From the IMG/VR virus record IMGVR_UViG_3300048592_000297, positions 1 to 62,814 of that record: DNA of 62,814 nucleotides, one strand, 5' to 3'. This document shows, in pieces, positions 327 to 61,833 of the stretch. The notes beneath the pieces were generated by a model. The model worked only from the letters and a program-made list of their open reading frames with translations. It made no database searches and was not told the DNA's origin. The position numbers and the translations under genes were made by a program. Numbering within the stretch: position 1 is the first letter of the stretch; every line of letters starts with the position of its first letter. This DNA is from a virus. Its lineage: Duplodnaviria; Caudoviricetes.

Positions 327-1035
327 CTCCGGTTCCTTCGGTAGCTATTCCGACTTCCGCCAGCGCCTCGTTATCCAGCCCAAGCCTACGAAACAGCTCC
401 TCTTGGATATTCGCATTGACGTAGTTGAACTGCACCTTAAGCGCAGTCGCCCACAGGTTGTACGTTTCTACTGGAAGATGAAGCACAAACTCGCCGATTA
501 CAATTCGCGTTCGAAGCGGTCCAAGTCCGTTGTTTGTGCTGGTAGCTGCCTGCACTGTGTCCTCGCTTGGCGTGGACGATAGGCAATCGTCTGCAACCAC
601 TTGCGTAAGGCAATCTACCTCCTCGCGAGAAAACCCCAGATACGTGAAATCGATTACGCCCACCAGCTCCGACAACTCGGCCGACAGCAAGTCTGTGTTC
701 CACGTAGCGATCTCGGCGAGCTTGTTGTCAACGATTCGAAACGCCCGAATCTGGTCCTCGGACAGATGGTGTACACGAACTACTGGAACGCTGCTGTAAC
801 CAAGAGCTTTCGCTGCCTTGACCCGTGTATGTCCGGCAACAAGCACATTATCAGCATCGACAAGGCACGGAATGATGAATCCAAACTCACGAATCGAGTT
901 CGCCACATACTCGACTGCAGCATCGTTGTCGCGGGGGTTGTTCTCGTATTCGTGAATGTCCTCAATTTCGAGGTATTCCAGCTCAAGCTGCTGCTGGGCG
1001 ACGGCAGCGCGACTACGTCTAGTGCGGGCGCTCAT
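307..1035 (-). CDS. ParB-like N-terminal domain protein
   Basis: YENNPRDND..VANSIREFGFIIPCLVD..LVAGHTRVKAA..AFRIVDNK is a classic phage ParB-N motif set. Start placed at MSART (ORF track gives 1047). Confidence 0.85.
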   Translation of the reverse strand: MSARTRRSRAAVAQQQLELEYLEIEDIHEYENNPRDNDAAVEYVANSIREFGFIIPCLVDADNVLVAGHTRVKAAKALGYSSVPVVRVHHLSEDQIRAFRIVDNKLAEIATWNTDLLSAELSELVGVIDFTYLGFSREEVDCLTQVVADDCLSSTPSEDTVQAATSTNNGLGPLRTRIVIGEFVLHLPVETYNLWATALKVQFNYVNANIQEELFRRLGLDNEALAEVGIATEGTGDGDVCD

Positions 1036-1066
1036 AGCCTGCCTCACTCACGCGGTGCATCATTCG

Positions 1067-1096
1067 AAAAAAAACGGCGGGGTTGCCCCCGCCGTG
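1067..1096 (-). terminator. Rho-independent terminator
   Basis: On - strand ACGGCGGGG-GCAA-CCCCGCCGT followed by a T run, just after the 1117 stop. Confidence 0.9.
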
Positions 1097-1116
1097 CTCC
1101 CCTCTAGCAGATTCGA

Positions 1117-2331
1117 CTACTCCTCCTCGGCGCCATCGACTGCCTTCTGCGCTTCCTGCCGCGCCTTCGCCCGCTGACGAACCAGACGACGAACGTCCTT
1201 CTGTTCGAGGAAGGATTCCGCCCAATCGAGAACGATACGCTCGAACGTCTCAGCGGGGGGCAGGTCAAGCGTCTCTTGCGCAATTGCGAGAATTGCACTT
1301 ACGGTATCGGACGCCGCCTCCGGCAGCGCGAACGTGAACCGCTCCATCTTGACAACGTCACGCTTGCTACCGGGCGTCGCCGTCTGGTTGCGGGTGGCGC
1401 TGATGGTCTCCTTCAGCTCGGTAACGGACTGCGTCGAAGCCGCTTCCATCAGGCCCGCCGGGTCGGCGTCGTCGAACACACGCTGAATGAGCGCAGCCTT
1501 CGAGTAGCCGATGGTGGCCAGATCGTCGGCTCCGAGACCGTGGCGTCGGAACTGGGTGTAGATCGCGAGCAGATCCATCGCCTTGCGATAACCGACGTTC
1601 ATGTCCTCGGTAAATAGACGAAACCCTCCCAACCCCTCGTAGCGCGAGTCCAGATAGCGATAGAGCTTGCGAACCCGCACCGCGTAGAGCGCGGCCCCCA
1701 ACTGCCACTCGGCGTTGATACTGGCCGTGGACAGTTCCGCAATCAACTCGCGGACATCGTCACTCTCCTCGACCATCTGCCGGACTTCAGGATCTTCCTC
1801 GTCTTCGGTGAGGACGATCATGTTGCCGAGTTCAGGGTCGGCTTCTTCTTCGTCTTCTTCGGCTTCTTCAGCCTCTTCTTCGTCTTCTTCGTCGTCTTCT
1901 TCTTCGACCGGCGCGACAGTCGCCTTGGCCTTGGCGGCAGGCTTGGCCTTGGCGGCAGGCTTGGCGGACTGCTTGCTCTTGTTCCCGGCGGAAGGCAGCG
2001 CAATCTCGTCTTCGAACACTTCGATGTCGAACACGTCGCCGTCTTCGCCCGTGACCTTGAGCTTGTACACCGTCTCGTCGTTGTCCTCGTCGGGCGGGAT
2101 CACGGCCGATACCGGGTACTGCTGGCCAGCTACCAGCATCTCCGCGCCATCGGGCAGGCTCTCAGGATCGGAAAATCCGACGAACTGGACGACCTGCTTC
2201 AGTTCGTACCGTGCTTCAGCGGCCTTGACGGCCGGCTTGGCAGCGGCCTTGACGGCCGGCTTGGCAGCGGCCTTGACGGCCGGCTTGACGGCAGGCTTGT
2301 TAACCTGCGGTTTCGTTACTGACTTGACCAT
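1117..2331 (-). CDS. Putative abundant DNA-binding/nucleoid protein (KPAVKAAA histone-H1-like repeats, acidic tract, helical HTH-like C-domain)
   Basis: 404 aa with AKPA repeats, a D/E tract and GC3-rich codons; flanked by its own promoter and terminator. Function is inferred. Confidence 0.6.
   Translation of the reverse strand: MVKSVTKPQVNKPAVKPAVKAAAKPAVKAAAKPAVKAAEARYELKQVVQFVGFSDPESLPDGAEMLVAGQQYPVSAVIPPDEDNDETVYKLKVTGEDGDVFDIEVFEDEIALPSAGNKSKQSAKPAAKAKPAAKAKATVAPVEEEDDEEDEEEAEEAEEDEEEADPELGNMIVLTEDEEDPEVRQMVEESDDVRELIAELSTASINAEWQLGAALYAVRVRKLYRYLDSRYEGLGGFRLFTEDMNVGYRKAMDLLAIYTQFRRHGLGADDLATIGYSKAALIQRVFDDADPAGLMEAASTQSVTELKETISATRNQTATPGSKRDVVKMERFTFALPEAASDTVSAILAIAQETLDLPPAETFERIVLDWAESFLEQKDVRRLVRQRAKARQEAQKAVDGAEEE
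2221..2297. repeat. 24-bp tandem repeat encoding KPAVKAAA
   Basis: GGCCTTGACGGCCGGCTTGGCAGC x2 plus partial copies. Confidence 0.85.
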
Positions 2332-2384
2332 TGTGCTTACTCCATGCGTGGATAAACGTACCGTATACCATTGCTGGCGTGACC

Positions 2385-2413
2385 ATTATCGACTTCCACA
2401 ATAACCAAGTCAA
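2385..2413 (-). promoter_or_regulatory. sigma70-type promoter for the 404-aa gene
   Basis: TTGACT-17bp-GATAAT on - strand; a TTGC-N8-GCAA site (2430-2445) lies just upstream of the -35. Confidence 0.75.
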
Positions 2414-2432
2414 CCGCTACAGCGAAGATTTG

Positions 2433-3005
2433 CTACCGTCTGCAAACCGCATATAACTGCTGAATCGTCCCAGCTACTTTCGCAAACGGCTCAACTCTTG
2501 CCTTGCGGGCCATGGCGAGTCGAATCTTGGCATCCCTATTATAGCGCAAATCAATCCCGAAAAACATAAGCAACACCGCATCCGCAATATCGTCGTTAGG
2601 GATGTGCGCACCTGTAGTCCTGCGTCTCGCCGCAGCAATCATATCCTGTTTATCAGCTCTGCCATTGCCGGTTGCGTACTTCTTCAGCGCCGACGGCGGC
2701 ACTGTAACGATGCTGCATCCTTGCAGCGCAGCAACAACACGAACAGCGCCATGCAGCTCGGCAATGTCGGCAACCCGCCCCACTCCGTGCATAGCGACGC
2801 CTTCCATGCAGACTGTGTCCGCCTTGTGCAGTGTCAAGAACTCATCAATCGAGGCAGCGACATAAAGCAATCGTGCTGTGCCAGTTGCTCTATTGTCGCT
2901 ACGGTTGTTGAGCCGCACATGCTGATAGGTCAAGCGCCCGCCCTGTAGAACTGCCAGCCCGGTCCCGTTCAGAGAAGGGTCGATCCCTACGACAACACTG
3001 TTCAT
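2433..3005 (-). CDS. ruvC: RuvC-like Holliday junction resolvase
   Basis: VVGIDPSLNGTG, MEG, PSALKKYATGNGRADKQDM and NDDIADA motifs. Confidence 0.88.
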   Translation of the reverse strand: MNSVVVGIDPSLNGTGLAVLQGGRLTYQHVRLNNRSDNRATGTARLLYVAASIDEFLTLHKADTVCMEGVAMHGVGRVADIAELHGAVRVVAALQGCSIVTVPPSALKKYATGNGRADKQDMIAAARRRTTGAHIPNDDIADAVLLMFFGIDLRYNRDAKIRLAMARKARVEPFAKVAGTIQQLYAVCRR

Positions 3006-3952: not shown

Positions 3953-3968
3953 ACCCACTCCTCTGTAG

Positions 3969-4346: not shown

Positions 4347-5466
4347 CTTCGTGCACCGTAGTGTCGAACCGCAACAGGAACTTTCGAGGCATCCCCATGT
4401 GCTGGGCTTGCGCCCGAAGCAAGTAGTTGCTCAGGGCACGATAAACTCCACGATTCTGGTTCAAGAAGACGGCCGCTTTAGCGGGGCTTTCAAGCGAATA
4501 CTCCTGACCATCAAACTCCAGCTTCCAGTATTTCCCACCGCCCGTGAATACCCCAAACTTCTTGGCATACGCCAAGACAGTTGGCGAATCGTCCACGTCA
4601 CCGTCGTGGAGACCAGAATCGAGGTCATCCATACGGCACAACTTGAACTCGCCCTGCCTCGGGCCGTTGTTAACCTTGTTCTTGGTAATTGCAAACTCAT
4701 GCACGTTGTGGGTTACAACATCCACATCGTACTGGTCTTTGCCTACTGTCTCCTTGTTGAGCATCCGCCACACTAGACTAGGGAAGTGCTCTACCGCACG
4801 CCCGCCGGGCGCTATGCGATTGTCACCATACATCTGTCCGATCCGAGTGCGAAATTGATTGATGTACAAAACGGCAGGCTCGTGACCTCGCAGCCTTTCG
4901 TGCACCATCGAGCCAGTAATCTTGCGGCACAACCGACCAATCAATCTCGACTGCAGTCCAATATGTGCATCCTCAGCGCTACTGTCTGCTTCTGCAAACG
5001 GTAGCAAAGTCGCCAACGAGTCTATAACGAGGATGGATACCTGCTCGGTCGAGACGAACAGATCCGCCATATCCACCGCATGTTCGCCAATCTGAGATTC
5101 CACGACTTGGATTCGCTCAAGATCGACGCCCAACTTTTTGGCCCACACCGTGTCAAAGGCTTTCTCGCAGTCCATGAATACTGCAACACTGTCTGGATAT
5201 TTGCGCTGAGCGTTAGCAATTATCTTGCAGGCAATGGTAGTCTTGCCAGCATGTTTCTCGCCAACGATCATGCTCTGCCGCCCCTGCGGTATCCCGCCGA
5301 GCGTGCACAGATCCAGAATAAACGATCCAGTGCTTATGCGCTGTGGTGCATTGATATGTGTTCCCTTGTTGGATACAGGACCGTACTTCTTCGTAATGCT
5401 GGTGAGGGTTTCATCTAGTTCAGTCTGTTGAGAATCCGCAGGCCGCTTCAATCGTACCCTAGTCAT
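4330..5466 (-). CDS. recA: RecA-family recombinase
   Basis: ISTGSFILDLCTLGGIPQGR, Walker A GEKHAGKTT, LVIDSLA, INQFR..IG, PGGRA. Confidence 0.95.
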   Translation of the reverse strand: MTRVRLKRPADSQQTELDETLTSITKKYGPVSNKGTHINAPQRISTGSFILDLCTLGGIPQGRQSMIVGEKHAGKTTIACKIIANAQRKYPDSVAVFMDCEKAFDTVWAKKLGVDLERIQVVESQIGEHAVDMADLFVSTEQVSILVIDSLATLLPFAEADSSAEDAHIGLQSRLIGRLCRKITGSMVHERLRGHEPAVLYINQFRTRIGQMYGDNRIAPGGRAVEHFPSLVWRMLNKETVGKDQYDVDVVTHNVHEFAITKNKVNNGPRQGEFKLCRMDDLDSGLHDGDVDDSPTVLAYAKKFGVFTGGGKYWKLEFDGQEYSLESPAKAAVFLNQNRGVYRALSNYLLRAQAQHMGMPRKFLLRFDTTVHEDDPSE

Positions 5467-5829: not shown

Positions 5830-6054
5830 TTATTCCTTCGGCAGATAATCGATTATGGATTCCGTTTCTAGGTCGAAAACATGCGCCCACGTTCCCCACT
5901 GATGGCAGACCAGCGCATCGCGCGCATCCTCAACAGTATCGAACGCTGCATGGAACTCGCGTGCCCCGCCTTCCGGGTAATAAGTATCGCCCGCAAACAC
6001 CAAATACCGCTTCATTATCGTCCCCCTCACAACGCAGTTGTGCGCTGTTGTCAT
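5830..6054 (-). CDS. Small phage hypothetical protein
   Basis: MKRYLVFAGDTYYPEGGA..; an alternative start at 6015 has a strong RBS. Confidence 0.65.
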   Translation of the reverse strand: MTTAHNCVVRGTIMKRYLVFAGDTYYPEGGAREFHAAFDTVEDARDALVCHQWGTWAHVFDLETESIIDYLPKE

Positions 6055-6602
6055 GGATAGTTGGCTCGCACACGTTCAATTACGTCAGCCATCACTTCTG
6101 CATAGATTCGTGCAGAAGGGTGAAAATAGTCATAGCCGCCGATGTGCAAACTCACTAGCGTAGCCGCAATCACATCCACCTCCTCTCGCAAGTATCTGCG
6201 GTGGTTGTACTTTGTGTCGCGATACACAGGCGCGGGAACGAGCCGTTTCGTCACCCAAGACTTCACAGTAACCAGCGTCTTTCCAGTAGCTAGTGCAAGC
6301 TCCTGCATGGAGTACGTCTCGGCCGTGAACAGCGTACCGCTAGTGGGCGACACAATTTCGCGCAAAACTCCCGCAACCAAAGGCCCGCCGGCTAGAGCGC
6401 TCGGTTCTGTTATCGTCTTGGTCTTCAGGTACGCCCTCCGCGCAGCGTTTTTCGCGCGTTGCCTGTAGTCGGCATCGCTACGATATTTCTCTCGTGCTCG
6501 TTGCCGCTTATTCGATGCGCTTTGAGCGCTTCCACGCGGCGTTTTACGTCGCGCAGAAGACGCGCCGGTTCTTGCTTCTGAAGTCCTCGCTCCAAGTCCC
6601 AT
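6051..6602 (-). CDS. MerR/excisionase-like HTH DNA-binding protein
   Basis: YSMQELALATGKTLVTVKSWVTKRLVPAP..RRYLREEV; basic N-terminus overlaps the helicase gene. Confidence 0.7.
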   Translation of the reverse strand: MGLGARTSEARTGASSARRKTPRGSAQSASNKRQRAREKYRSDADYRQRAKNAARRAYLKTKTITEPSALAGGPLVAGVLREIVSPTSGTLFTAETYSMQELALATGKTLVTVKSWVTKRLVPAPVYRDTKYNHRRYLREEVDVIAATLVSLHIGGYDYFHPSARIYAEVMADVIERVRANYP

Positions 6603-10453: not shown

Positions 10454-10936
10454 CTACGCCTGCATGTCTTTGGCTTTCTTACCCGGCACTCGCGGCTTCT
10501 GCTGGAGAAGCGGCAGAAACCTGTATTGCGGTTCCTTCGGGGTGCCCGGGACAGAAGTCGTGACCGCTGCGAAATCTTTGGACGACAGCTCGGCCCTCAA
10601 CGCCGCTATGCTAACGTCTGCAATTTCACAGAATCGATGCTCCCCGACCAAAGCGACAACTGCCGCCTTGTCTATTTGCGTGGACGAGTTCGAACGAGGC
10701 GTGTACACCTCGTGTGTACCGTACTGCTCGACAGCAAACGTCGTTTGCCCAAGCGCAGCAAGTGCTGCTTCCGCTTCCGTGTGAAGCGATGCCAGCTCGG
10801 CCTTCATTCTAGCGATGGCCCGCTCCTTATAGGAGATCAACCGGCCGAGGCTCCTGAGCCGGTCAGTGGTAGTTGCTGCGTGCGCGTCGCGTGCTGGCGT
10901 GCGCCGCGTAATCTGCAGTTTTCTTGGTTCAGCCAT
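10454..10936 (-). CDS. Hypothetical coiled-coil protein
   Basis: 160 aa, strong AAGGAG RBS, directly downstream of a promoter. Confidence 0.7.
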   Translation of the reverse strand: MAEPRKLQITRRTPARDAHAATTTDRLRSLGRLISYKERAIARMKAELASLHTEAEAALAALGQTTFAVEQYGTHEVYTPRSNSSTQIDKAAVVALVGEHRFCEIADVSIAALRAELSSKDFAAVTTSVPGTPKEPQYRFLPLLQQKPRVPGKKAKDMQA

Positions 10937-10998: not shown

Positions 10999-13635
10999 TT
11001 ATTCTATGCGCCACCGTAAATGGCTCGGCAAATCACGTAGACCATAATTTGGCGGATCATACTGCGCAGGCAACCCCTCGATCCCAGCTTGTGTTTCGAA
11101 GTCGTATGGATCGTCCAGTGTTAGCGCTTTGAGTTCTTTGACCCCGCCAAACCCATCAACAGCAACGGCAACATCCGCAATCAACGGAATCTTGAAATCC
11201 ACATCGAACAACGCTTTCAGATCCATACGCTCCATGTAATACTTCAGGGTTTTAGCGGCCCACTCTACATGCTGAAGCGGCGTCAAGACATAAATGGCGT
11301 CATGAACGAAACTCGCCAGCGCCATATACGCCGGATCAAGTTCTTGGTCTATCGCCGTCATTGCCATAAGCCCTAACGTAGACCCGAACTCCTGCACCGG
11401 GGCGTTTATGCCCATGCGTTCAGCGGCTGAACGTACATGCTGCTCGGCAGACCGAATCATCGGCAGGTGTCGAACCCGACCACTGTAGGATCGGACATAG
11501 CCATTGGCGCGAATGAACTCACGCATCTTCTGGTGCCACGAAACCAAGCCACTGTACTTACGGAAGTACAGATTACGAATATCCTCCGACTCCTGATCGG
11601 TAACGTCCACGCCGTACTGGGTCTTCGCGTAAACCTTGTATTTGCGAGCCCCCATACCGTACACATAGCCGAAGTTGATTGCTTTGCCCTTGAAGCGCAA
11701 AAGCGCTCGCTCGTCCTTGGACATAGCCGCAAACTGCTCGTCAGTGACCCGCGACGCAAACCGAGCAGTGTCTGTGTGGATGTCCCCGCCTTCGCGATAG
11801 ATGCGAACCATCTCAGGCTCATTCGCCATATTTGCTACTATTCGCAATTCGATTTGCGAATAGTCGGCCTCGACAACGGCGAAGCCTTCCGGCGGCACGA
11901 AAATGTTGCGATACTCCTTAGCAAACGTACCGCGCTTCGGCCAGTTCTGTGAGTTTGGTGATTGAGAACTGGTGCGGCCGGTAGAGGTGGTGTGCAGGCT
12001 GTACGATGGGTGAATCATCCCCTCGCGCATGTACTTCTCACGAAACTTCTTGATGTTCGCATCAAGCAAGCGTTTCAGCTTCTTGTACTCAATTAGTTGC
12101 AGAACAAACTCATTCGTATCAGCGAAGTACGGAAAATGATTCTTCGAGCTTAACGACGCCAGTCTCTGGTCAGCCGGTAGGTTTTTGGTCGAATCGGTGT
12201 ACAACACTGGCGTCAGCCGAAACCCGCTGGGATGGTCGAACAGGATGTCTCTAACAAACGAATCTCGCGAGAACTTCAAGCCATGCGGCTTCGCCTTATC
12301 CACGTGCGCTCGCTTAATCGGTCTCGGCACCTGCGCCAACAAAGCTGTCTCTATCTCCTTGACTCGGGTGGAAAGTGAGGTTTCAAGGCTGTCCAGCTTG
12401 GCTGCGTCGCAGTGCATACCGCGAAGCTCCATGCTCACCAGTGTGTTTATGCCCGGCATGGTGACGATGCGATAGTTGCGCCACAATTTCGCATCTCGGC
12501 GAACCAGCGGCTCTAGGTACTGAAACAGCCTGAAGGTCGCATCTACGTCTCCTGCGCCGTACATAAGCATGTCAGACAGCGGAACTTCCCGCATCTTAGC
12601 TTTGTCGTACTTCCGATTGAACCAGTCGTCGTACCCAGCAAGCTCGGGCACGAAAATCTTCGTTAGCGTAGACAAATCCTTAGATCGCTGATTCTCGTCA
12701 TGGAGTGCCGCCAGCAACAGAACATCATGGTCAATCTTGAATCGTATCCCGAGTCTGGTAGTGATCCACAGCAAATCGAACTTCAGATTGAATCCTATAA
12801 CAGACCTGTCTGTTGAGCACAGCAAGTGAGTGAGCTGCTGCTTCAGCTTGCGTCTTACCCGCCTTGGTGCCGGACGTTCTGGATGATCCCAAGACAACAG
12901 GTATCCTACGCCGGGTTGCGGGCTCAACTGAATCGTTAACAACTGCTTTGACCGATCAAACCAGTCGAGGCCGTCGGTTTCCACGTCAACAACCAACTGA
13001 CTGGGGTTTTGGTCTATCAAGAACTGCAAGTCATCCACAATCTCGTAGCCAGTAACAAGGCTGTGCTTCGCTGCATCGGCATGAAAATCACCATCCGCCA
13101 ACCGCTTAAGCGTCAGCGCATCAGCGCGAAATACGCCCCAATTCTGGGGGTAGCTTGCAACGACAAACGGATCAATCATCGGGTAGACAGGGCGCATGAA
13201 CTCCTCAGAGAACTCAACCTGCCCACGAATCTTGGTAATCTTCTTCGGCCGTCCGAAAACAGCCTTCGCCGCTTCCGCCCCTAGCGTGATGATTGCGACC
13301 GGCTTCATCTGCCGGACAACTGCTTTCAGATAATGTCTGCAGTGCTCTAGTATCGCCTTTCGTGATTTCGCACTGTAGGTGTCGGGCTTGTGTCCGCAGC
13401 GTACATGAGCATGAAACACGAACTCGTCTTTGCTGAACCCGGCTTCTTCCATCGCACGGTTAAAAACAGTCATCGACGCATGCGACAGATGCGATTGCTC
13501 GCCATATCCTCCTTCTTCGTTATCTACGAACGGAAGACCAGAAACAACTAGATATTTCGCAGTACGAAGATCCCCCGCCGCTTTGATTCGCGGTAGTTGT
13601 TCGCATGCAAGAGGGCATCCCTCGCAGATACTCAC
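10999..13635 (-). CDS. polA: Family A DNA polymerase with N-terminal UDG family-4-like domain and 3'-5' exonuclease
   Basis: Polymerase: TGRTSS..PNSQN, ADYSQIELR, KAINFGYVYG, VHDA. Exonuclease: DVETDG, FNLKFD, YGAGD. N-terminal CEGC..RC..C. Confidence 0.95.
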   Translation of the reverse strand: MSICEGCPLACEQLPRIKAAGDLRTAKYLVVSGLPFVDNEEGGYGEQSHLSHASMTVFNRAMEEAGFSKDEFVFHAHVRCGHKPDTYSAKSRKAILEHCRHYLKAVVRQMKPVAIITLGAEAAKAVFGRPKKITKIRGQVEFSEEFMRPVYPMIDPFVVASYPQNWGVFRADALTLKRLADGDFHADAAKHSLVTGYEIVDDLQFLIDQNPSQLVVDVETDGLDWFDRSKQLLTIQLSPQPGVGYLLSWDHPERPAPRRVRRKLKQQLTHLLCSTDRSVIGFNLKFDLLWITTRLGIRFKIDHDVLLLAALHDENQRSKDLSTLTKIFVPELAGYDDWFNRKYDKAKMREVPLSDMLMYGAGDVDATFRLFQYLEPLVRRDAKLWRNYRIVTMPGINTLVSMELRGMHCDAAKLDSLETSLSTRVKEIETALLAQVPRPIKRAHVDKAKPHGLKFSRDSFVRDILFDHPSGFRLTPVLYTDSTKNLPADQRLASLSSKNHFPYFADTNEFVLQLIEYKKLKRLLDANIKKFREKYMREGMIHPSYSLHTTSTGRTSSQSPNSQNWPKRGTFAKEYRNIFVPPEGFAVVEADYSQIELRIVANMANEPEMVRIYREGGDIHTDTARFASRVTDEQFAAMSKDERALLRFKGKAINFGYVYGMGARKYKVYAKTQYGVDVTDQESEDIRNLYFRKYSGLVSWHQKMREFIRANGYVRSYSGRVRHLPMIRSAEQHVRSAAERMGINAPVQEFGSTLGLMAMTAIDQELDPAYMALASFVHDAIYVLTPLQHVEWAAKTLKYYMERMDLKALFDVDFKIPLIADVAVAVDGFGGVKELKALTLDDPYDFETQAGIEGLPAQYDPPNYGLRDLPSHLRWRIE

Positions 13636-13637: not shown

Positions 13638-14915
13638 CTAATCCTCCAGCATCCAGTCGATATTGACGTTTTGGTTCAGTATTTCCCTACTGCTGAGCGC
13701 GTAATGAATCGGTATCTCCTCGAAGCAAACAGGATTGAACCGAAACGTGATCGCAATCTGCGCAGACTCACCTTCGCGACCTTTGATCGTGCGTATGATC
13801 CGCGTGCGCTTGTCGGACGCAGTCTTATGCGGGTACTCAAGCGAGTACACAACCGAGCAATGTGTCGAAAACGCATCAGTGAACCCGACTGTCTCCAGAG
13901 TCGTGTGCCCCGCTTTCGCGCCTTCCCGGCTTACCTGCGAAGACGCCAAGATGGGGATGTCTCGCCGCAGCGCAACATCCTTCAGGTCGTCGAGCACGTC
14001 CGAAATCTGAATGTTACGTGGTGCGCCTCGATTGGTGCGGGCACTTCGTAGCATGTAAACGCCATCTATAATGACAAAGTCGGGGCGTTGTTCGGCAATT
14101 ACAGCATCGATGCCTCCGACGTTCGACCCTTTCACATTGCCTTGGTAGATGTGAAGTCGAGCACTTGATGCTGCTTGGTCCAGCGCCTGTCTGAACCTGT
14201 TCTCGTCATACGTCCCTAGTTTACCACGTCGAGCGTGACTAGGGTTAACGCCAGCCACCATCGCCGCATACCGGGTTCCGATCTGCGCCATGCTCATTTC
14301 CATAGTAACGAACAGAACATTCGCACCATAGTCGAGGGCGCTTCTCAACGCTCGAAGTAGAATCCACGTCTTCCCCGTCTCCGGCCGCGCAACAATCACG
14401 TTGAGGTCACCATTCTGCATCCCGGAACTTTCACCGTCTAGCGTAGGGAACCCTATCGGCACTCCTACCAATCCGTCTATGCGGTGTCGGGCATCGTACC
14501 TGTCGAGCACAATCTCCGACACCTCTCGTATCGAAAGCAGGTCTGCCGCATCGTTACCTAATCTGCTAACGGATGCAAGTCGATCAATGATCGAAACAGC
14601 ATCCATCATATTCCGTTCGCTAAGCGCAACCCGTAGAGCGTTGTACTCAGGTACGATCTGGTTGTGGAATCGGCGCTCCCGCAACGCAGAGATGTAGTAT
14701 TCTAACGAGTCGGTTACTTCCGGCAGCTCTATCGATGTCCGTTCTTGGACCGTTGCGCTTGACGGTAATTCGCCAAACCTACGCACGTGCAAGACGCAAA
14801 ACCGAAATACTGTCGTCTCATTACCAGCAACAAAATAGCTCTCATCAACTCGCCGAAGTTCCCCGGTGTTGCCATTACGACAGATGGCCGCGATGTAATT
14901 GAGTCCGATTGACAT
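13638..14915 (-). CDS. dnaB: DnaB-like replicative helicase
   Basis: ARPETGKT, VTMEMS, IIDGVY, SSQVSR, IKGREG. Confidence 0.92.
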   Translation of the reverse strand: MSIGLNYIAAICRNGNTGELRRVDESYFVAGNETTVFRFCVLHVRRFGELPSSATVQERTSIELPEVTDSLEYYISALRERRFHNQIVPEYNALRVALSERNMMDAVSIIDRLASVSRLGNDAADLLSIREVSEIVLDRYDARHRIDGLVGVPIGFPTLDGESSGMQNGDLNVIVARPETGKTWILLRALRSALDYGANVLFVTMEMSMAQIGTRYAAMVAGVNPSHARRGKLGTYDENRFRQALDQAASSARLHIYQGNVKGSNVGGIDAVIAEQRPDFVIIDGVYMLRSARTNRGAPRNIQISDVLDDLKDVALRRDIPILASSQVSREGAKAGHTTLETVGFTDAFSTHCSVVYSLEYPHKTASDKRTRIIRTIKGREGESAQIAITFRFNPVCFEEIPIHYALSSREILNQNVNIDWMLED

Positions 14916-21604: not shown

Positions 21605-21645
21605 CGTTATCTCCTTGTTAGACCATACGTGGGTGCGGCATAGAA

Positions 21646-21674: not shown

Positions 21675-22019
21675 CGTCATGCAGAGGTCCGCAAACGACG
21701 CAAACGGACGGCCGTGACTAGTCTATCGAGGCAGAATGCCGACTTCAACCGGCATCAGAGAAGGGCAACCAAGCGGTGGGAAGTGCTAACGTTTGCAAAA
21801 CACGGCGCGACGATACATATAAGAAGTTGTCGAAGCCTGCACTGCGCTAGGTGCGCGCCTGCCATTTAACGCCAATAGGCCGAACAACACAATGCCGTAG
21901 CTGAAGGGTAGCCGCTTGCCGGAGGCGGCGACTTCCCACAGACTCTCGTTGCTGCGAACAGTTCAATCTCCATCGGACCTGAGACACCGAGTACTGAACC
22001 ATTTGACAGCCCCTGTAGG

Positions 22020-39610: not shown

Positions 39611-39626
39611 TTGCAAATGATAGCAA
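39611..39626. promoter_or_regulatory. Intergenic copy of the TTGC-N8-GCAA motif
   Basis: TTGCAAATGATAGCAA fills the short gap directly upstream of the RBS of 38593-39594. Confidence 0.6.
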
Positions 39627-47986: not shown

Positions 47987-48002
47987 TTGCTAACGATTGC
48001 AC
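47987..48002. promoter_or_regulatory. Intergenic copy of the dispersed motif
   Basis: TTGCTAACGATTGCAC between the post-capsid hairpin and the next RBS. Confidence 0.55.
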
Positions 48003-50706: not shown

Positions 50707-51319
50707 TAAGCTGTTCCTTCACGTTTGCAAACAAAGTGTATCGATGTCGATGTACCCTGCCCGCTTCGTCTGCCGCCAGATCAGTATACGTGTGGCTTGC
50801 TATCGTATGCAAGTGCCCGACACTGTCGGCCGTCTCTCCTCGAACAACGCGCCCGAAATCATCCAACTCAACCGAAAACGAGTGCACGTGCCCGTCTAGG
50901 ATGGACGGGTACGTTACCCCACGAGCTTCAGTTAGGTTTGGGTAGACTACCCCGACTTCGAGACTGGACACCAGAGCTTCATAGGAGAAACCATTCAGCT
51001 CACCGGACAGTATATCACCCCAAATCTTGTCGTCAAGCACTAAAATACCGATGACCCAAGCCCCAGTGATGAACGTCGAATCCCCCTCACGGGCTATGAA
51101 ACTCTCCACTACCCTGATCTTGTCGCTCACATCCTTGTTGTCGTGATCCAGATCAATCTGGAACCCATTTATCATGAACCCGTAGGCGAACTGACGGATG
51201 TTCTCAGCGGTGTGCAGATCGCCGTACACATTACGCTCGTCTGGCACGAGCACTTCAGCAAATACAAGCCGTTCATGCTCCCCGGAAACCGGCTTGAACT
51301 TCAGCGTTGTCTTTGCCAC
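50699..51319 (-). CDS. XkdF-like prohead serine protease
   Basis: VFAEVLVPD..GD..IDLDH..VVESF..GELNGFS; GTG start after GGAG (ORF track gives 51415). Confidence 0.85.
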   Translation of the reverse strand: MAKTTLKFKPVSGEHERLVFAEVLVPDERNVYGDLHTAENIRQFAYGFMINGFQIDLDHDNKDVSDKIRVVESFIAREGDSTFITGAWVIGILVLDDKIWGDILSGELNGFSYEALVSSLEVGVVYPNLTEARGVTYPSILDGHVHSFSVELDDFGRVVRGETADSVGHLHTIASHTYTDLAADEAGRVHRHRYTLFANVKEQLNG

Positions 51320-51336: not shown

Positions 51337-51352
51337 TTGCAATCGTATGCAA
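51337..51352. promoter_or_regulatory. Intergenic copy of the dispersed motif
   Basis: TTGCAATCGTATGCAA just upstream of the protease RBS. Confidence 0.55.
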
Positions 51353-53463: not shown

Positions 53464-54042
53464 CTAAATCGCAATTGTAGTGTAGTGCAGACAACGCTGA
53501 GTAGCGTCGAAGTAAATGGCTGGACGGTCGCTGCTTCGTTGAACCCGTTCGCAGAAATTGAAGTCCTCGCCACCGACCCTGTTTCCGTCCGAGTCGTATG
53601 GAAACTTGAAGTAAGGTTTGCTAATGCTTGCAAATACGTCACGACGAATCATAACGCACCCAGTCCCCACTACATCAACTTCATGCAAACCGGGCTGGGA
53701 ATGTTGATAATCGTGATGATACCCGCCTTGTTCATTACGCACAAAACCTACAGGAATCCTTTCCAACCCACGCGCCATACAGACATGAGCAGAGCACACC
53801 AAAACATTGTGCTGCGCCATGCTCAAAATGTCAGTAACTGGCACAACGTCGCTGTCGATCATCAACAAAAACTCAAAATCGAAACCGCTGTGCAAGAACT
53901 CATTTACGATAACGTTCCTGCAGTAGTCGTGCGGCCGCTCTTGTGGAAAGAACACATTCCTGATACCAGATTGGAGAATCCACTGCACCAGTTCTGTTCG
54001 TAGATTCCCGGTATTTGGTACACCAAGCATGATCTTCGGCAT
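53464..54042 (-). CDS. GT-A fold (family 2-like) glycosyltransferase
   Basis: GVP, RN.IV..FL, LMIDSD (DxD), GTGCVMIRRDVF, GEDFNFC, C-terminal H. Confidence 0.85.
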   Translation of the reverse strand: MPKIMLGVPNTGNLRTELVQWILQSGIRNVFFPQERPHDYCRNVIVNEFLHSGFDFEFLLMIDSDVVPVTDILSMAQHNVLVCSAHVCMARGLERIPVGFVRNEQGGYHHDYQHSQPGLHEVDVVGTGCVMIRRDVFASISKPYFKFPYDSDGNRVGGEDFNFCERVQRSSDRPAIYFDATQRCLHYTTIAI

Positions 54043-54749: not shown

Positions 54750-56496
54750 TGAGCGATCTCCTACGTCGTGGTCGGCCTTTCGTCAGATTGCGTCTCGCGC
54801 CTACGTCGCCAACTCCTTTCCCATCTTCCACTAGGTCTATATCTGGAGTTCGCACAGCGGATTCCTCGCGCGGCTCGCTCGGCTGATCCAGCCGTCCGCC
54901 CGCATCAATAGCAGTCTTACGCACACCAATCTGGATTGGAAGATCCATCCAGTCCATCCACCCGTCCTGCCCCTTTTCAGGGTAGAGCGGAATCGATACC
55001 TGCATCTGTTCATTGATGATCGAAATTGCAGAACGAGGGGTAAGAGCACCCATCGCATTCGCTGCAGTAAGTGCATTTACAACTTCGCCCGGATTCGTCA
55101 GCGGCGGTCCTTTCGACTCCAGCTTCACGGTGCGAAGCCCTAGCCCTAGCTCGCTGTTGACGAACGAGTTGTTCAGCCAGTCGTCATGCGCCATGCGCTG
55201 CGGCTGAAAGACTTGCATCTCTGCCACAAAAGTGGAGACATTCGCAGTTGCAAACGAAACGTCTTGACTCTGCCCGAGCAGAACAGGCGGCAATCGAAAG
55301 CATGAGCGCACCTTGTTCTGATTGGCGACATCGTACACGCTGAATAGCCCGTCACTTGGCCGCGAATCGGCAAGCCGCTCAATTGAGATGTGGGCGACCC
55401 CGTGGTCTTCGATACCGCCTGTCTCAGGGATTGCCTCAAGTAGCATAAGCTGGTTTTGCTTACCGAGCCCGCCTTCTTCAGCTACACGTCTGATTTCGTT
55501 GAAGGAATCAGCCGTGAGCCGTCCGCCAGAAATCGTGATGATTGCGGCAGGCACCATGTTGTCTTCGAAGTATCGAAGGTTGCATTCTTCAGCTTCTGCC
55601 GATCCGAGAATGATCTTGAACATGCTGCACCAGCGCGGGATTCCATACACGTCTTCCGAGTCCTGCTTATGGTGCATCAATTCGGTCGCACGATACTTGT
55701 CCGGTATCTTCCCGCCTGCCTTGCTTTGGTACTCGCCAGTGCGATAGTCCATTGTGCGGGGGTCGCCGTACTCCTTGAAGTACACAACCGTTGCGCCGAT
55801 CCGTTGCACATACTTTCGAAATCGCTTGAGTTCTGCGACAGAAACTCTGCTACCGCCCCTGAGCACAGTTTTCGTTACCCGTACCGGCGTCTTCTGGCGC
55901 GACAAAATACGCACGGTCGATACCGGAACGTGGCGCAGCAGAGTTGGACGGCCGGTAATGTTTCGAATAACCTCAAGATAGCGCAGTCCGTACTTCTCGA
56001 ACTCGTATATCTGCGCCCGGTTTTCCTGCACTAGCGAACGGTCGGTGTTCGCATGTTTGATCCACGACATCAGCGTGGCGCGTTCACGAGGGTCAATATC
56101 CACATCCTCGTCGTATGGCACGACTCGATAGCCAAACCCAGCTATATTCGTGACCATAGCATCCACGCATTGTCGCAAAACGTTGCTCTTGCTAAAGAGC
56201 CCGTCCAGAATCCCGAACTGATATACAGGACGCATCTCGACATTGTTGCCGAGAAGTTGTGATAAGCCAGAAGTTCCGTCCAGCATCTCCTGCCTAGACT
56301 GGTCGGCTCGTTTGATGTCCCCAAGCGTCCTACTACCGTCGCCATCAGCGCGGCGAAAGACAACAGCTCTGCCGCCAGACGGCGACAAGCTCATAACCCC
56401 AGTCGCGGCTGGGCGTAGATTGCTAACGTTTGCAACTCCCTCATTCGGGACTCCAACCATCAGATTAGAACGACTACGTCTGCGGGGCTTCATCAA
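54742..56496 (-). CDS. Portal protein (PBSX XkdE-like)
   Basis: YLEVIRN.TG..YFKEYGDPR..YGIPRW..YFEDN..FRLPP.LG. Confidence 0.9.
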   Translation of the reverse strand: MMKPRRRSRSNLMVGVPNEGVANVSNLRPAATGVMSLSPSGGRAVVFRRADGDGSRTLGDIKRADQSRQEMLDGTSGLSQLLGNNVEMRPVYQFGILDGLFSKSNVLRQCVDAMVTNIAGFGYRVVPYDEDVDIDPRERATLMSWIKHANTDRSLVQENRAQIYEFEKYGLRYLEVIRNITGRPTLLRHVPVSTVRILSRQKTPVRVTKTVLRGGSRVSVAELKRFRKYVQRIGATVVYFKEYGDPRTMDYRTGEYQSKAGGKIPDKYRATELMHHKQDSEDVYGIPRWCSMFKIILGSAEAEECNLRYFEDNMVPAAIITISGGRLTADSFNEIRRVAEEGGLGKQNQLMLLEAIPETGGIEDHGVAHISIERLADSRPSDGLFSVYDVANQNKVRSCFRLPPVLLGQSQDVSFATANVSTFVAEMQVFQPQRMAHDDWLNNSFVNSELGLGLRTVKLESKGPPLTNPGEVVNALTAANAMGALTPRSAISIINEQMQVSIPLYPEKGQDGWMDWMDLPIQIGVRKTAIDAGGRLDQPSEPREESAVRTPDIDLVEDGKGVGDVGARRNLTKGRPRRRRSLNG

Positions 56497-56896: not shown

Positions 56897-56899
56897 CAG

Positions 56900-58160: not shown

Positions 58161-58365
58161 ACAAGATTTCCCCTTCTGTCTGAACCTGAAGCACCTGTAT
58201 GGTGCTTTTCTCATTCCACCAAGCACGCTCGTCGGCTGGTCGATACTTGCTAACAATAGCAATCGCCGCCTGTTTAGTTGGCGCATCGCAGGCAATCTGT
58301 ACGTGTACGCGCTCAGTCTTCCCTTTGCTAACAGTTACAACGCAACAAAGTGCAAAATACTTCAT
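58117..58365 (-). CDS. Small hypothetical protein
   Basis: 82 aa, ends QRRRRSR. Confidence 0.5.
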   Translation of the reverse strand: MKYFALCCVVTVSKGKTERVHVQIACDAPTKQAAIAIVSKYRPADERAWWNEKSTIQVLQVQTEGEILYAGAGNIQRRRRSR

Positions 58366-58383
58366 GCAACCCCCAGACTCTGC

Positions 58384-59511
58384 TTAAGCAAACCGAAACG
58401 CAACCACCGAAAACACAGAGCCATCATACTCTACTTCTTTCACAAAGACCGGAACCGCACGCCGATGTTGCTTGAAGTAAGCATCTGCCTGCTCGGCAAT
58501 GCTAACACCGCAATACGCGCTAACCGCGAACAGCATGGCCCCACCATTGGTCCAGTCTAGTATGGCGGGATCGTTTGCGTACTCAACCGAATACAAGCTC
58601 CGTACAGGAACGTTCGAGTAATCCCCGTTGCACCCGAGAACCGGGCTGACGCGATACAAGTCATCAGACTGCGTTCGCTGCGCAGCATAGACAAGTTCGA
58701 GGATTGCATCAAACTCGCGAGCAGTGCGACGAACCGCCATTACGTCAGAACGAGATGAAAGCCGAAACGGCGCTATAGGGGCCGACGATACCGGCCATAC
58801 ATACTCACAACGACGTACCACATCCGACAGCAACAAGTACTTACCCAGCCGATAGTGATGACTGCCGCGAGAGCCGTTGTTATGGTAGGTGGGGTATCCA
58901 GCGCCGCGCCAGCCATACTGCTGGACAGCCGACATCGCTGTAGACGCAACCTTCGGCCCAACGCCCTTCACGAACAACGGACGAGTTACGCCTTTGTACA
59001 GATTGTAGTAGGCTTTCTGCCGCGCGACGCTACCCTCGTCCGGGATTGCAACACATATTGCAGACGATTCGCTGTAGGTGATAATCCTGTCTAGTCTATC
59101 CCAAAACCGCTCCTGCAAATCCAGCGACTGCCGCGCTGGTGAGGATCTCCAATCATCGCCAGTGGACCAAACGCCTTGATCCTGCCTACAGCCTAGCTGC
59201 TCGTGAAGCACGAGATCGACCGCTGCACCATCGTCCCATCTGTGGTATGACGGAAGATGGCCCGGTTTCCACCGGACAATCCGACGCGATACCTCATCAG
59301 AGATGAACCCGTATGTCATACTTGCCACGCCGAATACATCAACAATCGCATCAACCAACTGCGCCAACGCAAAACCGTTGAACTGTATCCTGCTAACGTC
59401 TGCAAATATGTTGCGATACCCGTGCACAAACATGCTGTTGTGGAAAAGGTAATCATAGAGCAGAGAATGTCTTCCGAGGCGCGTAAACGGGTGTAGCCCC
59501 GCAGCGCTCAC
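58384..59511 (-). CDS. Peptidase M15-like (Hedgehog/DD-peptidase fold) protein
   Basis: RLGRHSLLYDYL..TYGF..SYHRWDDGAAVD; second RLGKYLLLSD repeat. Confidence 0.55.
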   Translation of the reverse strand: MSAAGLHPFTRLGRHSLLYDYLFHNSMFVHGYRNIFADVSRIQFNGFALAQLVDAIVDVFGVASMTYGFISDEVSRRIVRWKPGHLPSYHRWDDGAAVDLVLHEQLGCRQDQGVWSTGDDWRSSPARQSLDLQERFWDRLDRIITYSESSAICVAIPDEGSVARQKAYYNLYKGVTRPLFVKGVGPKVASTAMSAVQQYGWRGAGYPTYHNNGSRGSHHYRLGKYLLLSDVVRRCEYVWPVSSAPIAPFRLSSRSDVMAVRRTAREFDAILELVYAAQRTQSDDLYRVSPVLGCNGDYSNVPVRSLYSVEYANDPAILDWTNGGAMLFAVSAYCGVSIAEQADAYFKQHRRAVPVFVKEVEYDGSVFSVVAFRFA

Positions 59512-60227: not shown

Positions 60228-60672
60228 CCTTGAGCAGCCCGGCTTCGGCAAGTAAATCGACGTAAACTTTAGGCTGGCGATTCATGTCCCTAACTGTTTC
60301 CACAACCATCGCAAGATGCGCCGCAACAAGCACCGTCAACAATAGGCAGGTTGCCGAGATCGCAAGGTTTTGGTGCGCGAAGCCAACGAACAAGCCAGTA
60401 AGCAGTATGCAAATCGACTCCTGATAGAACAACAATTTATGCCTGTCCTTTTCGTCAGAAAGGACAAACAACCACCATACGTGCATGAGGCACACCGGAT
60501 GTCCGAAGCTCAGCACTAGCCAAATCCGTGGTATGCCAAGATAGAGCACGGCGAGAACCACAACCCAATTCAATTCGGGCTCGTACAAGAACGTGCTAAG
60601 AAGCAGCACCAAAAGGGCAATCACAGTTACAATAGGGTGCGTCACTAGCCTGAGGATGAGGTTGTGATTCAT
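60211..60672 (-). CDS. Membrane protein (~4 TM)
   Basis: Four hydrophobic stretches. Confidence 0.7.
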   Translation of the reverse strand: MNHNLILRLVTHPIVTVIALLVLLLSTFLYEPELNWVVVLAVLYLGIPRIWLVLSFGHPVCLMHVWWLFVLSDEKDRHKLLFYQESICILLTGLFVGFAHQNLAISATCLLLTVLVAAHLAMVVETVRDMNRQPKVYVDLLAEAGLLKDDEDA

Positions 60673-60704
60673 TGCGGCGCTTCCGTTAGGTTGGAGGTTT
60701 CATT

Positions 60705-60962
60705 CTACCCCTCCACTCTCCGGGCCACAATTCCCTTCCACGCATCAACTAACGGCCGAACAGCATCTTGTGCAGCCCGCAAGTTAAGGTGCGGATCGTC
60801 ATGGTCGCGACACTCAACGCAGATTCGTGACTGGATATGGAACACTTGAACCCCGACAAAATCCCACGTGTACGGCGAAACAGCACTGCCATCGCGTTTG
60901 GACACCAACCGAACAATGAACTCGGACGACTCAAGTTTCTTGGTTATGTCAACTGCAGGCAT
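60705..60962 (-). CDS. Hypothetical protein
   Basis: 85 aa, AGGAGG RBS. Confidence 0.6.
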   Translation of the reverse strand: MPAVDITKKLESSEFIVRLVSKRDGSAVSPYTWDFVGVQVFHIQSRICVECRDHDDPHLNLRAAQDAVRPLVDAWKGIVARRVEG

Positions 60963-61363
60963 GTAAGGCCCTCCTTCTCGATGATAGCCGTAAGGCTCTC
61001 CACGATGGAATCCAGAATACGATCCTGAACACGCCGGTCATCTACCGAGCGCCATACACAAATCGCTCGAATCACTGCAGCTTCCTGCGCACGTATGTGG
61101 TTGAGGGCGATGTAGCTGCCAACGGCATGAGCGCTGTCAACATGGCGCACGTTGCGAGGACTCCACAATCGGAGTAACTCAACAGTGTGGGCGGCTTTTC
61201 GTAAATCCTCGATGCCGTTCTTCGTGCGCCAGCGCGACACATACCGAACGACGCTGCCCTCTAAGGCAGAAAGACAAATATCCTCAGAGAAATGACCCGG
61301 CTGGTACGCCATCGTCTTGTAGTGGCCCCCGCCAACCTGCACACGATCTGGTGACGTGTCCAT
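60944..61363 (-). CDS. DUF3310 (SaV-like) protein
   Basis: QVGGGHYK..QP..EGSVVRYVSRWRTKNGIEDLRKA. Confidence 0.85.
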   Translation of the reverse strand: MDTSPDRVQVGGGHYKTMAYQPGHFSEDICLSALEGSVVRYVSRWRTKNGIEDLRKAAHTVELLRLWSPRNVRHVDSAHAVGSYIALNHIRAQEAAVIRAICVWRSVDDRRVQDRILDSIVESLTAIIEKEGLTCLQLT

Positions 61364-61833
61364 CAGTTGACTCCAGTAGAGCCGAACCCGCCAGTTCCGC
61401 GTGCGCTTTCGTCCAGCGTTTCGACGTGAGTGAACACCGCCTTGCAACTTTCGACAAGCAGAGCTTGTGCGATGCGCATGCCCGGAGTGATGACCGAACT
61501 TGCCCCCGGCGCGACACAATGCACAATCACGCCGATCTCGCCTCGGTAATCCGAATCGATGATACCGGGCGCATTCACCACTGTCAGCCCGTCATTCAGC
61601 GCAAGACCTGAACGCGGGCAAACCAAGAGCACCATGCCCGGCGGCAACTGTACAAAGACTCCAGTAGGGATGAGCATGGGCGAGTTGGCAACGCGCGTCG
61701 GGTACTTGACCGCTGCTCGCAGATCAAAAGCTCCAGCCTCGTAAGTTGCATACGTTGGCAATTGCGGAGATCCATCCGGGTACGTCCATTGCGTAGCGAT
61801 TTTCACTTCTGTCAGCCTTCGGCCTGAACTCAT
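61363..61833 (-). CDS. dut: dUTPase
   Basis: AGAFDL, PRSGLA, GIIDSDYRGEI, RIAQ, RGTGGFGSTG. Confidence 0.97.
   Translation of the reverse strand: MSSGRRLTEVKIATQWTYPDGSPQLPTYATYEAGAFDLRAAVKYPTRVANSPMLIPTGVFVQLPPGMVLLVCPRSGLALNDGLTVVNAPGIIDSDYRGEIGVIVHCVAPGASSVITPGMRIAQALLVESCKAVFTHVETLDESARGTGGFGSTGVN

Follow-up and report, generated by a model that had tools for sequence, protein, structure and literature searches.

Several systems are known in which one protein reads short DNA sites that are scattered over a replicon. ParB and Noc bind palindromes of 14–16 bp, parS and NBS, respectively, which adjoin the gene of their reader and, in the case of Noc, are many and dispersed. KorB, a global regulator of the ParB family, acts on 12 dispersed palindromic operators of RK2, a mobile element of ~60 kb, and regulates its own synthesis. 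Among phages, the stoperators of L5, the conserved inverted repeats of phiC31, the C1 operators of P1 and the SopB sites of N15 each comprise tens of sites of 13–17 bp, which are read by one phage protein and in many cases lie off promoters. These phages are temperate, their readers are immunity repressors or prophage partition proteins, and stoperators are asymmetric and strictly oriented. A 17-bp palindrome, TGTTCGG-N3-CCGAACA, occurs in more than 30 copies between, at the starts of and inside genes of the non-temperate Cluster O siphophages of mycobacteria; in the available part of that report, its function is given as unknown and a dimeric binder is predicted, with no reader proposed (PMC4351075). 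Finally, phage ParBs without a DNA-binding domain (DBD) activate thymine dioxygenases on double-stranded DNA, and no long recognition motif is reported for them in the available part of the source (2026, PMC13229309). Here, we describe a dispersed 16-bp palindrome in the DNA of a siphophage, so classified by PHROG and Pfam scans (Caudoviricetes; IMG/VR record IMGVR_UViG_3300048592_000297). The record consists of a single contig of 62,814 bases, which was analysed over its whole length and is called the window below. The palindrome is under selection as DNA, its core is kept in distant relatives, and it may well be the binding site of a 404-amino-acid (404-aa) phage protein encoded directly behind one of its copies.

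The first-pass annotation of the window, made from the letters alone, had described about 19 exact and about 10 near-exact copies of TTGC-N8-GCAA. We counted 20 exact copies, compared with 1.30 expected from 100 dinucleotide shuffles (maximum 4), none of which reached 20. Spacers of k = 0–20 other than N8 gave 0–5 copies each, with five for N7 and three for N9, and TTGC-N8 ranked first in the contig in an unbiased scan of all 4-mer dyads. When synonymous codons were shuffled within each gene, the mean count was 4.4 (maximum 9), and when the codon order was shuffled, it was 3.2 (maximum 8). None of the 200 shuffles of either kind reached 20, with 2 of the 20 exact sites falling outside the shuffled codons. 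Both the enrichment of N8 over other spacers and the proposed selection on DNA rather than on peptide were thus borne out, and we conclude that the motif is under selection as DNA.

An iterated position matrix with a threshold of 12 bits defined a set of 28 sites, ~2.2 kb apart, with the consensus TTGCTAACGTTTGCAA. It comprises 17 exact TTGC-N8-GCAA copies and 11 copies with one arm mismatch; three exact copies were missed by the matrix (6844, 18664, 57731), a number within chance expectation. The central dinucleotide is CG in 22 of the 28 sites, in agreement with the usual central CG of the earlier description, whose six example coordinates were all recovered by the exact-copy and matrix searches. 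The sites carry no strand assignment; all were found by the matrix, and those marked "both" also as exact copies:

2430..2445, exact site TTGCTACCGTCTGCAA, anchor copy outside called genes; six of six genomes have a site here; both
4992..5007, one arm mismatch, within the RecA-like gene; matrix, 21.1 bits
7821..7836, exact site within the helicase gene; both
10608..10623, one arm mismatch; matrix
11832..11847, arms exact, non-CG centre, within the DNA polymerase gene; both
14563..14578, one arm mismatch, within the DnaB-like gene; matrix
16136..16151, exact site; both
18489..18504, arms exact, non-CG centre; both
19370..19385, one arm mismatch; matrix
21783..21798, one arm mismatch, outside called genes, ~120 bp upstream of the AAA+ ATPase gene; matrix
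24147..24162, one arm mismatch; matrix
27702..27717, exact site; both
31288..31303, one arm mismatch, within the first 5% of a gene; matrix
34361..34376, exact site; both
38406..38421, exact site; both
39611..39626, arms exact, non-CG centre, in a 37-bp intergenic gap; both
41187..41202, exact site within the tape-measure gene; both
43068..43083, one arm mismatch, within the tape-measure gene; matrix
44727..44742, exact site; both
47987..48002, one arm mismatch, outside called genes, directly downstream of the major capsid gene; matrix
50797..50812, exact site; both
51337..51352, exact site; both
53618..53633, arms exact, non-CG centre, at the extreme start of a gene; both
56420..56435, exact site with the top score (31 bits), at the start of the portal gene; both
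58247..58262, arms exact, non-CG centre; both
58325..58340, weakest site (18.4 bits), outside called genes; matrix
59390..59405, one arm mismatch; matrix
61746..61761, exact site; both

According to a simple list of open reading frames (ORFs), 23 of the 28 sites are intragenic and, as had been noted, occupy all three frames (15, 7 and 1 in frames 0, 1 and 2). The other five lie outside called genes, compared with 5% of non-coding sequence. The sites are evenly spread. Their gaps had a coefficient of variation (CV) of 0.43, compared with 0.95 for the null; none of 20,000 random placements was as even, and the largest gap was 4,045 bp. For the 20 exact copies alone, the CV was 0.71, which was not significant (P = 0.08), and the evenness therefore depends on counting the near-exact copies. 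The grid had been called genome-wide. It does run along the whole contig, but the contig is probably incomplete, so that contig-wide is the proper term. At its left end, an ORF for a ParB_N protein (3–326) runs off the sequence and, if the ends are joined (1–326 plus 62593–62814), stops after 109 aa, while its homologues have ~500 aa. The contig therefore probably represents about two thirds of a genome, those of the relatives being 79–110 kb long. A second dyad in the contig, GTCT-N7-AGAC, was seen in 8 copies, with 0.96 expected from the arm frequencies.

The motif has 5-bp arms with their centres 9–10 bp apart, and it can also be viewed as two self-complementary TTGCAA hexamers exactly 10 bp apart. 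In the contig it is not fully palindromic, one arm being TGCTA and the other TGCAA. On the plus strand, 14 sites have T/T at positions 5 and 12, and 4 sites have A/A; the remaining 10 of the 28 sites cannot be oriented. The shared orientation that had been described is thus real (14:4, two-sided binomial P ~0.03) but weak.

No relatives at the DNA level were found in the phage collection. The closest DNA polymerases were at most 41% identical and belonged to Samunavirus (Pseudomonas), followed by Aeromonas, Rhizobium, Agrobacterium and Rhodobacter phages, and a capsid-based search of IMG/VR returned only one relative of 5.5 kb. An IMG/VR scan for the consensus of the contig itself gave 112 stretches with single copies each and led to G001, a 65-kb IMG/VR contig with 32 TTGC-N8-GCAA copies, compared with none in a control read backwards. 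We compared the window with G001, Pseudomonas phage SM1, Aeromonas phage HJ05, Rhizobium phage L338C (first 100 kb) and Rhodobacter phage RcDurkin. All five are syntenic with the contig, and their DNA polymerases are 33–41% identical to that of the contig. In each of the five, the top dyads were versions of TGCAA-N4-TTGCA, with 16–43 exact copies per record and none in reversed controls; when one mismatch was allowed, the numbers rose to 28–51, compared with 1–4 in the controls. Thus, the sites are conserved in related phages at the level of this core. The bases around it vary. Preferred centre and outer bases were GTGCAARCGYTTGCAC in SM1 and TGCAATCGATTGCA in RcDurkin, and the preferred forms were TTTGCAAC..GTTGCAAA in HJ05 and TGCAAC..GTTGCA in L338C. 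The one-mismatch sets were more evenly spaced than random in the five relatives (P ≤ 0.003), while for exact copies alone the evenness reached significance in two of them (SM1, L338C) and fell short of it in G001, HJ05 and RcDurkin. Serratia phage Serbin served as a negative control (DNA polymerase 28% identical) and had one near-site, no TTGC-N8-GCAA and no homologue of the gene module described below.

In all six genomes, sites were enriched between −10 and +60 bases of gene ends (20–45%, compared with ~10% expected), although most were still intragenic; in SM1, many copies directly follow stop codons. Within 45 bp on each side, the flanks held no conserved information in the six genomes. 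With such empty flanks and no T-tract, a promoter or a terminator was ruled out. A second IMG/VR scan yielded further multi-copy contigs of 39–61% G+C, and wherever a contig could be assigned a place, it bore capsid or replication genes of this clade. Some lineages have changed arms: TGAAA, a mixture of TGAAA and TGCAA, one TGCAG (20 half-sites in contig L276) and one TGCAC. These changes were seen in L276, L261/L307/L308 and L254–L262. The arm variants are natural specificity variants and could guide mutagenesis. On another IMG/VR contig, L156 (1996–4275; 39% G+C), 16 exact TGCAA-N4-TTGCA copies in 6 kb include several in runs phased at 10 bp; from their arrangement they look like an iteron-type array rather than dispersed sites, and clade genes were not found on that stretch.

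The hosts of the motif-bearing relatives span two classes, alpha- and gamma-proteobacteria. That the same core is kept across both makes it most likely that the reader is phage-encoded, as the first-pass annotation had supposed. We conclude that the motif is very probably the site of a phage-encoded protein that binds double-stranded DNA. Judged from the sequence of the sites, a double-stranded target for a reader of two-fold symmetry remains what the motif would require.

The position of one site pointed to a candidate for this reader:

1117..2331, minus strand, gene of the 404-aa protein, the proposed reader (sequence, AlphaFold2, structural matches)
2385..2413, minus strand, sigma-70-like promoter TTGACT-17-GATAAT upstream of the 404-aa gene (consensus match only, 10 of 12)

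The anchor site at 2430–2445 precedes the TTGACT-17-GATAAT element by 17 bp, and the ATG at 2331 comes after the element. In six of six genomes, a site lies 55–137 bp upstream of the 404-aa gene, just past the RuvC stop codon. Among 14 shared anchor genes compared in these genomes, a constant site position was found only at the 404-aa gene. We extended the comparison with a HMMER search using the C-terminal 220 residues of the 404-aa protein, which gave 257 family clusters, mostly of 400–450 aa. Homologue loci were taken from IMG/VR (41) and metagenomes (28), and a generalised motif was scored on the 41 IMG/VR loci and the six genomes. It gave 407 sites over 1.05 Mb, compared with 56 in reversed controls. 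A site was centred 30–170 bp upstream of the 404-aa homologue in 36 of 45 testable loci (34 of 42 distinct proteins), where ~5% would be expected. In phages with TGAAA, mixed or TGCAG arms, the copy upstream of the 404-aa gene follows the local arm variant. Conversely, 8 of 10 records that were picked solely for several motif copies contained a 404-aa homologue; the two without it are fragments of 13 and 26 kb from the structural region. The homologue of L276 has GWWKA where others have GW[TSA]KA.

From its N-terminus, the 404-aa protein consists of KPAVKAAA repeats, a small domain, AKP repeats, an acidic run of ~25 residues and a conserved C-terminal half. The N-terminal repeats are rich in Lys, Ala and Pro in the manner of histone H1, and 3 of 71 family members match the chlamydial histone-H1-like family HC2 through repeats of this kind. 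No Pfam family covers the conserved half. Sequence comparison of the protein and of its family profile with the PDB gave low-complexity or repeat matches only, and a protein-atlas search returned only weak leads (0.80), to "ParB HTH" and DUF3102 clusters. An AlphaFold2 model built with 71 sequences had a predicted local distance difference test (pLDDT) score of 94. Structural matching placed a putative Noc/ParB-type DNA-binding domain at approximately residues 203–320. In a wide VIA-align search of 48,161 chains, the top row was the DNA-binding domain of a ParB–parS complex (6s6h_B, Z 7.1). A second look gave Noc, DNA-bound in both structures, with Z 8.7 for 7ol9_A (101 residues, 2.5 A) and Z 8.2 for 6y93_A (101 of 105 residues). 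Further matches were KorB (Z 6.4 for 8qa8 and 5.9 for 1r71), Spo0J (6.1), SopB (5.0), P1 ParB (4.5) and VirB (4.3); the next unrelated row had a Z of 5.6. We find the repeated matches to one family, always to its DNA-bound domain, persuasive, and by these best matches the modelled domain would be of the Noc/ParB type. The parS/Noc analogy of the first-pass annotation is thereby strengthened, since the best structural matches are the domains of Noc–NBS and ParB–parS and a site precedes the gene in every one of the six genomes.

Ribbon-helix-helix domains are obligate dimers. Over its last 80 residues, the 404-aa protein has structural matches to two proteins of this fold, Reg576 (Z 5.2, 61 of 61 residues) and CopG (Z 2.8, 41 of 41 residues, 1.7 A), and the family consensus of this tail, TFKFRL.ED.A..V...LE.A, was read as a strand–helix pattern of the ribbon-helix-helix kind. 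As an obligate dimer, such a tail would suit a palindrome. A homodimer prediction for the C-terminal half scored 0.40 against a mark of 0.42, which counts neither way.

Next to the 404-aa gene lie two genes for proteins with ParB N-terminal domains:

307..1047, minus strand, gene of a 246-aa ParB_N protein (Pfam ParB_N, E 2.7e-8; AlphaFold2 pLDDT 79; Foldseek E 1e-7)
3..326, minus strand, start of a second ParB_N gene cut by the contig end (~500 aa in relatives, with ParB_N and a methyltransferase domain)

The model of the 246-aa protein superposes on the nucleotide-bound N-terminal domains of ParB (CDP/CTPgS), Noc, PadC and KorB (Foldseek E ~1e-7). It shows a ParB nucleotide-binding domain, a disordered linker and a small C-terminal domain, with no helix-turn-helix. 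The ParB box reads GERR in ParB, and the 246-aa protein has GHTR at this position. The first-pass annotation had named the two ParB-like proteins as possible direct readers; this does not hold for the one modelled (307–1047), which has the nucleotide-binding domain but no helix-turn-helix. Residues 176–232 (FVLHLPVETYNLW..., a strand pair plus helices) also look ribbon-helix-helix-like, and one idea suggested by the models is that this C-terminal domain may pair with its counterpart in the tail of the 404-aa protein. Most of the 41 IMG/VR loci retain the gene order 404-aa protein, 246-aa ParB_N homologue, second ParB_N gene. In a single-sequence search of the five larger motif-selected records, the ParB_N protein was found in three and the MerR-like protein discussed below in two, a comparison that is uneven because the 404-aa search used a profile.

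We therefore weighed a model in which the palindromes are parS/NBS-like sites for the 404-aa protein, acting within a split ParB-like module. We consider the case for this reading evenly balanced, and are just as evenly divided on its core, namely that the 404-aa protein is the reader of the motif. Dimers of the protein would bind the TGCAA/TTGCA arms, one helical turn apart. At the anchor site, the protein would probably set its own level through its own promoter, and the ~27 other copies, ~2 kb apart, would offer it evenly spread footholds along the phage DNA. The H1-like repeats could compact adjacent DNA by binding it irrespective of its sequence. The ParB_N proteins would be brought to the DNA through the 404-aa protein, and the three might act jointly as a split ParB, whose output could be the organisation of replicating phage DNA, long-range silencing of the kind exerted by KorB, or chemical marking. 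The gene cluster indeed looks like a ParB taken apart, with the DNA-binding domain in one protein and the nucleotide-binding domains in two others, of which one is attached to an enzyme. A more specific version, in which the 404-aa protein on its loading sites recruits the two ParB_N proteins and these spread or slide so as to mark or coat only the DNA that bears sites, we regard as unlikely in this full form. Recruitment would in that case perhaps occur through the ribbon-helix-helix-like tails of the 404-aa and 246-aa proteins. If true, the split ParB would be a system made from ParB parts with which a phage marks and organises its own DNA.

Several observations weigh against the 404-aa protein as reader. 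Foldseek found nothing in the PDB for the 404-aa model at E ≤ 0.001, and the Z scores of 7–8.7 are near the level at which VIA-align advises caution for common helical arrangements. Because the 69 homologue loci were selected for the protein, co-occurrence in them is partly circular, and independence is limited to the 10 motif-selected records. In RcDurkin, the putative recognition residues that are conserved best (YRKA) are replaced, yet the arms are the canonical TGCAA. Arg is present at model position 35 in 20 of 21 phages with TGAAA or mixed arms and in 2 of 16 with TGCAA arms, with three lineage-level exceptions; this imperfect covariation of arms and residues was not used as support. The protein has no ParB N-terminal domain, and clamp-like behaviour is therefore not implied. 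Some database records label its homologues "putative single-stranded DNA binding protein". Furthermore, the systematic TGCTA arm in the contig is not explained by a symmetric dimer. Finally, other conserved DNA binders of the clade compete for the role, such as a MerR-like protein:

6051..6602, minus strand, gene of a 183-aa MerR-like helix-turn-helix protein, the rival reader (Pfam MerR_1, E 0.0022, below the cut-off)

MerR-family proteins bind palindromes as dimers. The sites could therefore be operators of another dimeric phage regulator, chiefly this protein, which would control transcription globally with the 404-aa gene as merely one target. The weak MerR_1/HTH_17 match at residues 97–146, the retention of the gene behind the helicase gene in SM1, G001, L338C and most IMG/VR loci that reach that far, and the gene-boundary enrichment of sites in the six genomes (20–45% versus ~10%) all speak for such a regulator. 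Yet no conserved site lies near its gene, most sites are intragenic without promoter-like flanks, and its putative recognition helix varies considerably while the motif arms do not. The protein also went undetected in HJ05, RcDurkin and three of five large motif-bearing records, which is weak evidence because a single-sequence search was used. A word-index search for homologues of the MerR-like protein returned none, and the PDB gave one weak match (E 0.27). On balance, we consider the MerR-like regulator a rather improbable reader. Its gene shares 178 nt (6425–6602) with the 3′ end of the helicase gene, read in another frame; the same overlap is present in SM1, and the Arg-rich N-terminal stretch is conserved.

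Alternatively, the motif might be the target or entry point for DNA modification by the ParB_N–methyltransferase and the neighbouring methyltransferase, helped by the ParB_N protein without DBD. In four of six relatives scanned, the third gene of the module is a fusion of ParB_N with the class I domain Methyltransf_23, and a further class I methyltransferase gene follows in one IMG/VR locus (L268) and is annotated in SM1. The fusion gene of the contig itself is cut off. The methyltransferase matches stayed below the Pfam cut-off and concern general small-molecule or RNA-type families instead of the usual DNA methyltransferase families, and no TET/JBP thymine dioxygenase was found in 13 neighbouring ORFs from two loci. 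In the available part of the published work, phage ParBs without DBD activate a DNA-modifying enzyme on double-stranded DNA, which favours this explanation, but the enzymes described prefer 3-base contexts and not 16-bp palindromes (PMC13229309). Modification as the primary role of the motif thus appears quite doubtful, although it can coexist with the 404-aa protein as reader, as the output of that system.

An RNA hairpin in long co-directional transcripts, serving as a processing, stability or protein-binding signal, is still harder to reconcile with the sites. As the genes are all on one strand, every copy is transcribed; many SM1 copies stand right behind stop codons, and the motif of the relatives can form a stem of 5–6 bp with a 4-nt loop (mean −4.3 to −5.9 kcal/mol for 20-mers, compared with −1.9 kcal/mol for random 20-mers of the contig). 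Across phages, however, the stem sequence is invariant and the loop variable, the reverse of what a structure-only element would show. In the contig, arm mismatches are uncompensated, with positions 5 and 12 mostly a T/T mismatch, and the hairpins are weak (mean −3.3 kcal/mol; 16 of 28 reach −3). There is no T-tract, and Rfam gave 0 hits. A hairpin function is hence very unlikely.

A host protein such as a LacI/PurR-type repressor or a nucleoid protein, which the phage would exploit or titrate, seems most improbable as the reader. The contig consensus does resemble the core of the PurR box, and the embedded CAA-N4-TTG part of the IHF consensus. Against a host reader, the arms do not change between phages of Pseudomonas, Aeromonas, Rhizobium and Rhodobacter, and thus across two host classes, or in contigs of 39–64% G+C, while individual phages switched arm variants, which better fits a co-evolving phage reader. 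The LacI/PurR analogy of the first-pass annotation was ruled out: the central CG is not kept in relatives (L338C, HJ05 and contigs differ) while the arms are, and no LacI-family protein was seen in the contig in the Pfam scans. The hosts of the clade lie outside the known range of PurR. Its analogy to L5 stoperators likewise did not hold, as the site is palindromic in all relatives, the orientation bias is only 14:4 and PHROG and Pfam scans of the contig found no integrase or immunity repressor.

Compared with the known systems, the 404-aa protein and its proposed sites share most with ParB–parS and Noc–NBS: a palindrome of 14–16 bp, a reader domain that superposes best on DNA-bound Noc/ParB domains, a site adjoining the reader gene, many dispersed sites as for Noc, and ParB N-terminal domains in the same gene cluster. 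Unlike there, the DNA-binding and nucleotide-binding domains reside on separate proteins, no ParA was seen in the contig, and ~28 sites occur in 63 kb of a seemingly lytic phage instead of on a chromosome or plasmid. The phage reader also adds H1-like repeats, an acidic tract and a ribbon-helix-helix-like tail. KorB, which is among the fold matches, provides a ParB-family global regulator with dispersed palindromic operators on a mobile element of similar size and with autoregulation, which is proposed here as well. The phages differ from RK2 in having 28–51 sites, mostly intragenic without a nearby promoter, and no single-chain clamp. Judged by sequence and models, the phage system would thus work like ParB–parS, Noc–NBS and KorB rather than being a member of the family, because its domains are not on a single chain and no ParA accompanies them. 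The dispersed operators of temperate phages differ in that a palindrome is used here and no integrase, immunity repressor or ParA was found in the contig. The Cluster O palindrome (PMC4351075, available part) resembles the motif in its dispersed copies between, at the starts of and inside genes and in its non-temperate siphophage carriers; sequence, host phylum and phage lineage all differ, and the likeness is one of kind. The DBD-less phage ParBs (5mYOX), as far as the available part of the source describes them, have the same layout as the 246-aa protein and likewise stand beside putative modification enzymes, whereas the partners here would be a methyltransferase fusion and a separate DNA-binding protein, with no dioxygenase in the 13 ORFs (PMC13229309).

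In the literature searched on the isolates, on ParB and on phage palindromes, outside subscription journals and supplementary files, neither the motif nor the 404-aa family was described, and the Rhodobacter phage paper nowhere uses the word "motif". A large, little-studied group of proteobacterial siphophages, including Samunavirus of Pseudomonas aeruginosa, has the element and its gene module as a hallmark. Samunavirus phages appear in phage-therapy papers. The proposed pair of a cis-site and its reader offers a concrete candidate for the so far unexplained dispersed palindromes in lytic phage genomes, such as that of Cluster O. Moreover, ParB parts that are separately encoded, namely a DNA-binding domain, a nucleotide-binding domain and an enzyme fusion, bear on how CTP-switch proteins and DBD-less phage ParBs find their DNA.

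Long ORFs on the minus strand cover 95% of the contig, and all genes are on this one strand. PHROG and Pfam scans assigned the structural genes for portal, protease, major capsid, major tail, tape measure and endolysin, while a terminase large subunit was not found in the contig. No ParA-like family was detected among 62 proteins (PHROGs) and 50 proteins (Pfam) of this incomplete contig, so that its absence from the phage is unproven. The replication and recombination block comprises, in this order, an AAA+ ATPase, a DnaB-like helicase, a family A DNA polymerase, a primase, a helicase, a RecA-like protein, two junction resolvases and a Cas4-like exonuclease, and it closes with the 404-aa protein, to which no family was assigned, followed by the ParB_N protein. 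The conserved AAA+ ATPase gene at its head (19844–21667, 607 aa) encodes an uncharacterised N-terminal region of 330 aa. A motif copy upstream of this gene is absent in HJ05 and RcDurkin and present in the contig, SM1, G001 and L338C. On the minus strand, a 360-aa ORF (8034–9116) overlaps the long helicase ORF and had been dropped from the greedy gene list. In the same place, SM1 has a gene that likewise encodes 404 aa, and RcDurkin a gp32-like single-strand binding protein. Because these two phages have a gene where the 360-aa ORF lies, the helicase probably starts later than 8236.

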